32,000 bases of DNA from the NCBI GenBank assembly GCA_036689225.1, contig CP144768.1:95306-127305 (forward strand), written 5' to 3'. A model generated the notes under the pieces. The model saw only the letters and a list, made by a program, of their open reading frames with translations, had not been told where the DNA came from and did no database searches. Of this stretch, positions 20,790-32,000 are shown piece by piece. The stretch comes from Candidatus Saccharimonadota bacterium (lineage in GTDB: Bacteria; Pseudomonadota; Gammaproteobacteria; Enterobacterales; Enterobacteriaceae). The position numbers and the translations under genes were made by a program. Positions within the stretch are counted from its first letter, which is position 1. Each line of letters opens with the position of its first letter.

Positions 20790-21090
20790 TTTTTTATATT
20801 AATTAATTTTATTTTATTTTTTAAAAAAAATAAAATGTTAAAATTATTTTTAATTTAAAATTAATTTATTTATAATATTTTTTATATAAATCTTATTTAA
20901 GATATATTTAATAATTTAGTTTTAAATAATGTATAATTATTTTTTATAATATATTATAAAAAATATTTTTTATTTAATAATTATTTATTAATAATTTTAT
21001 TAAATATTATTTAAACTAAATTATTATTTTATATTTATTATTTTTTTATTATTATATATATAATATATAATAATTTTTTTTTAAAATATT

Positions 21091-29296: not shown

Positions 29297-30298
29297 ATGA
29301 CTATTAGAATAGGTATAAATGGTTTTGGTAGAATTGGTAGATTAGTATTTCGTAATTCTCAATTTAAAAAAAATATTAAAGTTGTAGCTATTAATGATTT
29401 AATTAAAATTGATTATATGGCTTATATGTTGAAATATGATTCAACACATGGTCAATTTAAAGATAATATTATTATTAAAAATAATAATTTATATGTTAAT
29501 GATAATAAAATATATGTAACTTCTTTTAAAAAACCTAGTGATATTCCTTGAAATAAATTTAATGTTGATGTAGTTATTGAATCTACAGGTATTTTTTTAA
29601 CTAAAGATTTATCTTATGGTCATATTTTAGCTGGAGCTAAATATGTTGTAATGACTGCTCCATCTAAAGATGATACTCCTATGTTTGTAATGGGTATTAA
29701 TCATTATAGTTATAATGGTCAAAGTATTGTTTCTAATGCTTCTTGTACTACTAATTGTTTAGCTCCAATAGTTAAAGTTATACATGATAATTTTAATATT
29801 ATTGAAGCTTTTATGACTACTATACATGCTGTTACTGCAACACAAAAAGTAGTAGATAGTTTTTCTTTAAAAGATTGGAGAGGTGGTAGAAGTGTTTTTG
29901 GAAATATTATTCCTTCTTCTACTGGTGCTGCTAATGCTATAGAACATATAATTCCTGATTTAAAAAATAAAATTACGGGTATGGCTTTTAGAGTACCAGT
30001 TTCTAATGTTTCAGTTATAGATTTAACTGTTAGATTAGATTCTGATGTTACTTATGATAAAATATGTTCTTCTATGTATGAAGCTTCTAAAAGTTATTTA
30101 AATGGTATTTTAGGTATTACATATGATGATGTTGTTTCAAGTGATTTTAATGGTGAAAAATTAGTTTCTATTTTTGATGCAAAATCTACTTTATTATTGA
30201 ATAGTAGGTTTATTAAATTAGTTTCATGATATGATAATGAAACAGCTTATTCTGAAAAAGTATTAGATTTAGCATCTTATATATATTATTATAATTAG
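29297..30298 (+). CDS. gapA: Glyceraldehyde-3-phosphate dehydrogenase A
   Basis: '[15 protein letters not shown]', '[11 protein letters not shown]', '[12 protein letters not shown]', '[10 protein letters not shown]', 'WRGGR', 'IIPSSTGAA', '[16 protein letters not shown]' and 'W(TGA)YDNE' match GapA. The product is 333 aa, ending at TAG 30296-30298. GGGG lies 4 nt upstream of the ATG. Confidence 0.96.
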
Positions 30299-30379: not shown

Positions 30380-31945
30380 TTATTTATTTTCTATTATTTT
30401 TCTTCTTATTATTTTATATCTTCCTTTAATTTTTTTTTGATTTATTTTTTTTGATATAAATTTTATATATTTTTTTATTAATATTGTATTAAATCCAAAT
30501 TTTCTTAATAAATAATTATTTATTAATTGTTCATTATTTTTTAATATTATTTTTTTTGTTATTTCATGTATTTTATATGCATTTTTTCTTTTTATTATTT
30601 TATATAATTTTTTATCTAATTTTAATAATTTTTTATATTTTTTATTTTTATTTTTTTTTGGTTGTCATTTTTTATTAAAATTAATTAATTTAAATTGTTT
30701 ATAATATAATTGACTATTTATATTATTATGACCTAATATTTTATAGAAAAACATATCCTCATCATATTTTTTTCATTTTTTATCTTTTGTAAATCATTTT
30801 TCAAAACATATTCTACTATATATAGATCTTGTGTCTTTAAATGTTCTTTTTTCATTATTAAAAAAGGATTTTGATATTTTATTAAATGTATTTGATAAAT
30901 AATTACTTATTTGATAATTTTTTGATAAATATTTATTTTTTTTTTTTTTTATATTATTTATTATTTTTTTTAATATTTTGTTGTTTCTTATTTTGTTAAT
31001 TTTTTTTATAAATAGTTTTGGTTTACATAATAAATATATATTATATTTTTTTTTATTTTTTATTTTAGCTTGTCCTTTAAATTCTATTTTATAATTTTTA
31101 TTTATTATTTTAAATTTACCTATTTTTATTATTTCTATCATTCTTCTTCCAGATACTGCTGATAATGCAAATGATAAATGTGCTATATTTTTAATATTAT
31201 TAAGTTTAGTATTACTATTTAATATATTAAATATTTCTTGTATGTAATTTTTATAATTTATTAATATAATATTACTTTTTTTATTTTTTAGTTTTTCATA
31301 TGACATTTTTTTTGAAATTAAAAGTTTTCTTTTATCTACTTTTAAATGAAATAATATTTCGTGATTTATTTTTATGTTTTTTATAATTTTTTTAATTTTT
31401 TTACCTTGTTGTATTTTATTAATTATATATTTATTTGATGTATATCATTTTTGATTAATAATATTGTTTAATTCTTTTTTTCATTCAGGAAATTTATTTA
31501 TTGAATATTTTATTATTTTTAAATTATTTTTAGTAGAATATATTTTGATTTTATTAATTTGTTTTATTATATTATTTATAAGTTCTAATTTTTTTAATAA
31601 TTTTTTAAATTCTATATTTATATTTTTTGTATTATTTATTTTATTTATATAATCTATTTCTTTTTTATAATATGAAAAATTTTTTTTTAGATATTTTATT
31701 TTTTTTTTAAAACTATGATGTTTTATATTTAAAAATTGTTTTCTTGATCTAGATATATATGTTATATAACTATTTATTGATAATTTTTTATCTTTTATTT
31801 TTTTTTTAAAATTTATTGCTTCTTTTTTATATAATTTATTTTTTTCTGTTTGTAATATATTTTTTGTTTCTATTTTTTTTATATTTTTATTTAATTTTTT
31901 AATTAATATATTTATATTTTCTTTCATAATTATATATTGTAACAT
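30380..31945 (-). CDS. tel: Protelomerase / telomere resolvase, TelN/TelK (N15-phage) type tyrosine-recombinase-fold enzyme
   Basis: Track ORFs 31481..31945 and 30794..31306 plus flanking sequence form one frame under code 4, with 5 in-frame TGA codons and TAA at 30380-30382 by my hand translation. It gives 521 aa from ATG 31945, or 515 aa from the likelier start ATG 31927 ('MKENINILIKKL'). The blocks 'YISRSRKQF..HHSF', 'NKFPEW', 'INHEILFHL', 'LSFALSAVSGRRMIEI', 'FKGQAK', 'FKDTRSIYSRI' and 'DEDMFFYKILGHNNINSQLYYKQFKLINF' correspond to conserved TelN/TelK blocks as I recall them, with the RxxE, K, R, H and nucleophile Tyr contexts. Confidence 0.88.
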
Positions 31946-32000
31946 ATTTAATAAATATACATATGTATATTTATTAAATATGTTACAATATATAATTATG
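31925..32000. repeat. Perfect palindrome of at least 76 bp (dyad between 31962 and 31963), truncated by the window edge; candidate telomere-resolution site or hairpin-telomere read-through
   Basis: I checked it base by base: position 31925+k is complementary to 32000-k for all 38 pairs, with no mismatch. The core is AATATAC-ATAT-GTATATT. Both candidate start codons of the adjacent protelomerase gene lie in the left arm. Confidence 0.9.

Follow-up and report, generated by a model that had tools for sequence, protein, structure and literature searches.

The 32,000-nucleotide (nt) stretch of contig CP144768.1 analyzed here, which we call the window, ends in a long perfect palindrome that overlaps the start of tel, a gene encoding a protelomerase of the phage TelK/TelN type. 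The window belongs to the chromosome of Candidatus Stammera capleta, an extracellular pectinolytic gut symbiont of tortoise beetles, and most likely represents one end of that chromosome. We propose that the palindrome is a hairpin telomere, and that the Stammera chromosome is linear with covalently closed ends. We put the probability of this interpretation at about 0.85. It draws on the presence of an intact TelK-type enzyme, and on the manner in which the chromosome ends have been assembled, with each arm running through a shared inner site into its own mirror image and never into the other arm. The comparison was made with 30 related loci (L001-L030), all 30 of which are Stammera chromosomes of 212-314 kilobases (kb).

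The elements at the end of the window are as follows, with a slash marking the dyad here and below.

31925-31962, plus strand: left, chromosome-side arm of the palindrome, 38 of 38 nt complementary to the right arm; the terminal 38 base pairs (bp) of the tel-bearing arm, up to the proposed hairpin tip.
31963-32000, plus strand: right arm, the exact mirror of the left arm.
31937-31988, no strand assigned: putative conserved Tel recognition site, comprising two 26-nt half-sites (TTGTAACATATTTAATAAATATACAT and its mirror); a 52-bp element resembling telRL of phage N15.
31960-31965, no strand assigned: central 6 bp, CAT/ATG, predicted by homology with TelK to be the location of the staggered 6-bp cleavage and the hairpin turn.
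30383-31927, minus strand: tel, encoding, under genetic code 4, a TelK/TelN-type protelomerase of 515 amino acids; the palindrome arm contains the start codon of tel, at a distance of 35 nt from the dyad.

The two arms are completely complementary with no spacer, and the dyad falls between positions 31962 and 31963. The symmetry is stopped solely by the edge of the window, giving a palindrome of at least 76 bp. An earlier note on this DNA had described the palindrome as perfect to the last base of the window, with all 38 pairs complementary, a center of AATATAC-ATAT-GTATATT and the sequence ATGTTACAATATATAATTATG at 31980-32000, and each of these statements is borne out. The core of the N15 and phiKO2 sites that it quoted, ATTATAC-GCGC-GTATAAT, agrees with the phage records. 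It had also cautioned that the palindrome would not be specific if others of similar length were common in the genome. In the window the next perfect palindrome has arms of 14 nt, and in the relatives' loci few perfect palindromes reach 18 nt apart from those at the chromosome ends, and these few are unrelated to this one. The window has a G+C content of 14%, and in 200 first-order Markov simulations of such a sequence the longest palindrome arm had a mean of 11 nt and never exceeded 16 nt. An arm of 38 nt is far beyond chance. As single-stranded DNA the 76 nt are predicted to fold into one hairpin of -29.3 kcal/mol, with z = -12.5.

The inner section of the palindrome is conserved between strains. 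A half-site of 25-27 nt, TGTAACATA... running to the dyad, is present beside tel in the relatives, and in eight genomes it is found at the other chromosome end also (L005, L009, L010, L013, L015, L018 and L029, with a looser pair in L001). The pattern was found nowhere else in about 650 kb of the relatives' loci, and the window contains no second copy of the 26-nt half-site at up to three mismatches, where none is expected. The two ends of one genome have the inner 25-27 nt in common, for example ATTGTAACATATATAATAAATATACAT in L009 and TGTAACATATTATATAAATATATAA in L018, both read up to the dyad, and their flanks differ directly outside this shared section. The ends of L005 share 37 nt, and those of L009, L010, L018 and L029 share 25-27 nt only.

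The center of the half-site is variable, reading TATACAT, TATATAA, TATACAA or CATTATATAT up to the dyad in different strains. By contrast, C20 and G24 (numbered from the dyad) hold their distance even in the most divergent pair, that of L013. Since the center varies while this spacing is kept, an outer box containing C20 and G24 appears to be a better candidate for the conserved recognition determinant than the center. The half-site matches that of N15 telRL at 15 of 28 positions in an AT-rich background; counted from the dyad, positions 3-7 (TATAC) and 19-21 (ACA) are among the matches.

The deposited Stammera genomes were assembled with MEGAHIT, the contigs were scaffolded and curated, and oriC was then set from the GC skew (bioRxiv 10.1101/2023.12.12.571295). 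In the newer records (CP1447xx-CP1448xx) tel lies mid-record, beside a run of exactly five Ns located around 9800-10000 in the relatives' loci (9825-9829 in L009 and 9911-9915 in L029, and at 11655-11659 in L017). As the records have been rotated to oriC as if circular, the NNNNN marks the join of two original contig ends. If the two chromosome arms are termed A and B, the record reads from arm A through the half-site into the mirror of A, then NNNNN, then from the mirror of B through the half-site toward tel. Those palindromes of at least 20 nt that border a gap or record edge are perfect exactly to that edge in 15 of 15 cases, with arms of 29-124 nt, and of 1718 nt in L017. In L005 and L015, which are older records lacking Ns, the two overshoots simply abut, and the record of L027 starts 29 nt before the dyad, which is comparable with the 38 nt of the window. 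The junctions seen in the assemblies are A-A′ and B′-B, never A-B.

When a hairpin-capped fragment is ligated it becomes one continuous strand, which is read down one arm and back up again. The A-A′ and B′-B junctions are the expected product of sequencing closed hairpin ends, or of replicated telomere junctions. Within the window, each arm extends 12 nt beyond the conserved half-site, and these outer bases take in the tel start codon; the right arm is therefore the mirrored flank of the tel side and not a second arm. The sequence at 31963-32000 is thus most likely the same DNA read back around the hairpin tip. Of the proposals in the earlier note, that of an assembly running around a hairpin tip is favored, since in the relatives the mirror symmetry passes into arm-specific flank and, in all 15 palindromes that border a gap or record edge, does not break off before the contig does. 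The mirror copy of tel that such a read-through was said to yield is present, complete, within the 1718-nt mirror of L017. The suggestion of a protelomerase target or hairpin telomere is strengthened by the conservation of the site at chromosome ends across Stammera. Its N15-like TATAC-N4-GTATA core stands for the window and its closest relatives, but is not conserved across Stammera, where TATATAA/TTATATA and CATTATATAT up to the dyad also occur.

Both arms are present in 24 loci, and in every one of these the sign of the GC skew switches at the join; the chromosome ends therefore sit where replication terminates. A 20-kb Logan contig, assembled independently from the raw reads SRR23946976 (SRR23946976_74745; L034 1-60), starts precisely at the center of the palindrome found on the tel side in L014, and the Logan assembly graph has a single exit from this palindrome.

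Some of the deposited ends have peculiarities of their own. At 9797-9830 of L014 (CP144850.1) an Illumina adapter, AGATCGGAAGAGCACACGTCTGAACTCCAGTCAC, has been retained in the deposited chromosome directly after ...GTTACATAATAATACAT and is followed by NNNNN. It lies on the arm without tel, roughly 7 nt before the point where the dyad should fall. Apparently a large number of fragments stopped at a single position close to the tip, which is how a physical terminus would behave. At the end of CP043985.1 (L003 1-870) about 870 nt of 39-51% G+C are fused to a 5′-truncated tel. This stretch contains an endonuclease-like open reading frame (…LLVGGDFNAKSEEWG…GSDHQYIRF…) that by eye resembles those of retrotransposons lacking long terminal repeats, and it is probably DNA of the host beetle in a chimeric join at the telomere. 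It might be speculated that the 38-nt overshoot of the window is the signature of a de Bruijn graph with k = 77, i.e., (77-1)/2, but the overshoots of the relatives (29-124 and 1718 nt) fit this only partly.

The earlier note had placed the palindrome next to a tel gene, and this gene encodes a protelomerase of the TelK family. An exact match to the Tel protein is encoded on a 268,407-bp NCBI contig, the source record, which is not one of the 30 loci. The protein matches the Pfam families TelK_muzzle, ResT-TelK_cat and TelK_stirrup (PF20849, PF16684 and PF20818), all above the cut-offs, and over residues 33-503 it matches the chain of phiKO2 TelK in the crystal structure PDB 2v6e with an expectation value (E) of 1.2e-86. 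No NCBIfam match to Tel was found. Alignment with the TelK, TelN and PY54 Tel sequences of the phage records gives 34% identity to both TelK and TelN, and R262, K288, R367, H400 and Y409 align with R275, K300, R383, H416 and Y425 of TelK, which we take to be its catalytic residues. In 15 Stammera orthologues, conservation in the corresponding five columns is complete or at least 90%. A search of solved structures with E up to 1 returned TelK only and no chain of TelA or ResT, so that the search places Tel outside that subfamily.

The tel orthologues are full length (493-524 codons) in 17 of the 18 genomes checked, with a ratio of nonsynonymous to synonymous substitution rates (dN/dS) of 0.2-0.4, and the rate of Tel divergence is similar to that of gapA or alaS. 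Together with the conserved pentad, this argues that tel is functional and under selection, and is not the decaying relic of a prophage. The protein ends soon after the stirrup domain, lacking the acidic C-terminal region of about 110 amino acids that is present in TelN, TelK and PY54 Tel. Its nearest relatives outside Stammera are 616-638 amino acids long, similar to the phage enzymes, with about 35% identity. The start codon lies 35 nt from the chromosome tip in the window and 35-100 nt from it in the relatives, which leaves little room for a conventional promoter. A scan around tel returned 22 promoter-like sites compared with 26 expected from shuffled sequences, and no terminators.

TelK makes its two cuts 6 bp apart around the dyad, as seen in structural work on the TelK-DNA complex. 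From the homology, a cycle of telomere resolution can be proposed for Stammera. Replication would start from an internal origin and proceed bidirectionally down both arms. Copying around each hairpin would generate an inverted-repeat junction, with flank and half-site on one side of the dyad and their mirrors on the other. A dimer of Tel would bind the palindrome of about 52 bp and use Tyr409 to cut both strands 6 bp apart around the dyad, presumably as TATA^CAT/ATG^TATA. Each strand would then be rejoined to its own complement, creating two hairpin telomeres. The deposited bases to the right of 31962 would be the arm read back around the tip, ending where the contig ended.

A number of points weigh against this interpretation. 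The closed ends are deduced from assembled sequences. Base 32000 probably marks the end of a contig, where either the record stops or a run of Ns begins, because it is very unlikely that a window boundary would fall so near to the dyad by chance, and because L007 and L010 likewise show overshoots of 37-38 nt. No palindrome has been assembled in about half of the related records, whose ends are truncated or missing. The modest likeness of the half-site to N15 telRL, given the AT-rich background and a core that differs between strains, is suggestive but weak. Lastly, the depositors treated the Stammera chromosome as circular.

A circular chromosome was the other reading offered in the earlier note. 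The palindrome would then be a bounded telRL-like site at the terminus, a relic or a regulatory target of a domesticated or decaying phage tel, and the assemblies would break there only because palindromes assemble poorly. The records are consistent with this in having been deposited as if circular and rotated to oriC, the switch in GC skew would fit the terminus of a circle equally well, and the 37 nt shared by the two ends of L005 make a joined, telRL-like form conceivable. Yet at both ends the symmetry passes beyond the shared half-site into arm-specific flank, giving A-A′ and B′-B and never A-B, and the Logan contig extends unbroken across the half-site as far as the dyad, whereas a second exit would have interrupted it. 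Moreover, an intact and selected tel beside a cleavable site would linearize the circle anyway, and we consider circularity quite improbable. We give hardly any credence to a purely technical origin, in which the mirrored bases would be chimeric fold-backs made during library preparation or by the assembler at an ordinary break or open double-strand end, with no hairpin. Some deposited ends are visibly imperfect, as with the adapter in L014 and the host-like GC-rich sequence fused to tel in L003, and the lengths of the overshoots vary from 29 to 1718 nt. But strains that were sequenced independently, in several studies and with several assemblers, have their dyad in one and the same conserved sequence. 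This holds for both ends of one genome, and the site always lies beside the conserved gene of a hairpin-forming enzyme. A random event would not center the symmetry on a conserved half-site of 25-27 nt.

The remaining alternative concerns the form of the linear chromosome and not its linearity. Both ends might carry tel in a true long terminal inverted repeat, the palindrome then being two real ends placed tip to tip, still belonging to a linear molecule with hairpins. This is a sub-variant of the hairpin-telomere interpretation, under which the palindrome of the window could be much longer than 38 nt. In six relatives the two arms do share sub-terminal inverted homology, covering tel or tel remnants over 0.14-1.9 kb with 82-100% identity, and two of these (L002 and L004) belong to the group of strains nearest to that of the window. 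The segments are as follows.

L017, 8008-12021: 1718 nt at 100%, then 233 nt at 96% and 70 nt at 93%.
L004, 9256-10177: 141 nt at 100% and 149 nt at 93%, with pieces of tel on both sides of the gap.
L002, 9854-10140: 141 nt.
L016, 9446-12045: 487 nt at 94%.
L021, 9531-11861: 229 nt at 93%, overlapping a cold-shock-protein gene, and 117 nt at 82% at the 3′ end of tel.
L026, 9801-11864: 194 nt at 95%.

Set against this, 38 nt are visible in the window, and the ends of L009, L010, L018 and L029 have in common only their 25-27 nt. We regard a long repeat at the end of the window as possible but rather unlikely.

The ends of the Stammera chromosome appear to change over time. In the window and 15 loci tel is linked to the gapA arm, in about 13 loci it is linked to the other arm, and its location switches between close relatives. 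The pattern of arm-to-arm homology suggests that terminal inverted repeats expand by the copying of one end onto the other and subsequently decay, which would explain how tel changes arms. Simple inversion of a tel cassette was considered as the cause and dropped, as intermediates with tel sequence on both arms exist.

The closest enzymes to Stammera Tel are TelN of N15 and TelK of phiKO2, which belong to the same family at 34% identity, with the same three domains and catalytic pentad. As in N15, phiKO2 and PY54, tel lies immediately downstream of its palindromic target. In the phage records N15 telRL is 56 bp and ends 164 nt upstream of telN, the phiKO2 telRL ends 165 nt upstream of its gene, and PY54 has a palindrome. 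The N15 half-site is 28 nt long compared with 26 nt in the window, with the TATAC and ACA elements in common. There are clear differences too. The N15 site has GCGC at its center where the window has ATAT, and its dyad is 192 nt from the start codon (the edge of telRL being at 164 nt) compared with 35 nt in Stammera. TelN and TelK carry the acidic C-terminal region that Stammera Tel lacks. In N15 and phiKO2 tel is flanked by a ParA-like gene and an antirepressor, whereas in Stammera it lies on the chromosome beside housekeeping genes.

In its role, the Stammera system would most closely resemble the Escherichia coli chromosome that was linearized artificially at its terminus using N15 TelN and telRL (Cui et al. 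2007, as described in PMC12624138). Each is an enterobacterial chromosome with hairpin ends made by a phage protelomerase at the replication terminus; that of Stammera differs in being natural, conserved across a symbiont lineage and only 0.21-0.31 megabases (Mb) in size. TelA of Agrobacterium tumefaciens and ResT of Borrelia are likewise chromosomally encoded resolvases that maintain hairpin telomeres, acting on the inverted-repeat junction made by replication, but Stammera Tel is of the phage TelK/TelN type, a different subfamily. Candidatus Phytoplasma mali has a linear chromosome with terminal inverted repeats (PMC2459194). It too is AT-rich, reduced and host-dependent, but it comes from an unrelated lineage, the Mollicutes.

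The mechanism is known from N15-type phages, while its setting, a domesticated phage telomere system on a symbiont chromosome of 0.21-0.31 Mb, appears to be undescribed. No paper came up in literature searches that paired Stammera with protelomerase, telomere resolvase, hairpin or linear chromosome, and an earlier remark in the 2017 Cell or 2020 Current Biology papers is possible. These four terms go unmentioned in the paper on 50 Stammera genomes (bioRxiv 10.1101/2023.12.12.571295) and in a 2026 Stammera paper. The former dates the symbiosis to the Paleocene in its title.

On balance we favor a wider account, held with less assurance than the hairpin telomere itself, in which Stammera has a naturally linearized enterobacterial chromosome. 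An N15-like module of tel and its site would have been domesticated at the terminus and selected throughout the symbiosis, with dynamic ends that the deposited records mask by NNNNN. Terminal inverted repeats of between 25 nt and about 1.9 kb would grow and decay, carrying tel from one arm to the other. Linear topology may have made the resolution of chromosome dimers by XerCD and dif dispensable, which would suit extreme genome reduction.

If this is correct, an insect symbiont joins the few bacteria that have hairpin-ended linear chromosomes, the others of which we are aware being Borrelia and Agrobacterium, and provides a natural counterpart of the engineered linear E. coli. We know of no earlier main chromosome that uses an enzyme of the phage TelN/TelK type. 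Approximately 50 Stammera genomes would appear to have been deposited with the wrong topology. For genome reduction the question becomes why a phage gene of 1.5 kb has been kept in one of the smallest genomes of any extracellular bacterium, and whether linearity replaces functions in dimer resolution or decatenation. A compact protelomerase of 515 amino acids that is specific for an AT-rich site is also a possible tool for making closed linear DNA.

Over the window as a whole, the GC skew is positive along nearly all of the plus strand. TGA encodes tryptophan (genetic code 4). This assignment approximately doubles the lengths of the open reading frames and restores full-length housekeeping genes. 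The standard code (table 11) was rejected, as it splits nearly every gene, and tools that assume table 11 miss the proteins of the window. The code-4 translations identify hslU, murA, tpiA, rsmH, a mur/ddl cell-wall cluster, secA, degP, dnaX, htpG, recA, alaS, a porin gene, asnS, dnaQ and gapA. The last of these is the final housekeeping gene before tel.

29297-30298, plus strand: gapA, from the code-4 translation.

The order gapA-dnaQ-asnS-porin-alaS-recA is kept in the relatives. Thus tel in the window has gapA, dnaQ and asnS on one side and the chromosome tip on the other. Where tel is on the opposite arm, its neighbors are ruvC, two genes of class-II aminoacyl-tRNA synthetases, argS, prmC and prfA. 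With gapA as the last housekeeping gene before tel, the telomere is shown to be part of the chromosome rather than of a prophage or plasmid. No phage or plasmid backbone genes (ParA/Sop, repA, antirepressor or virion genes) were found among the genes flanking tel in the window or in the relatives. An N15-like telomere phage or linear plasmid prophage was rejected, given the housekeeping genes that flank tel. The palindrome with 14-nt arms lies at 20938-20965, with its dyad after 20951, in the gap between htpG and recA, and may be a bidirectional terminator.

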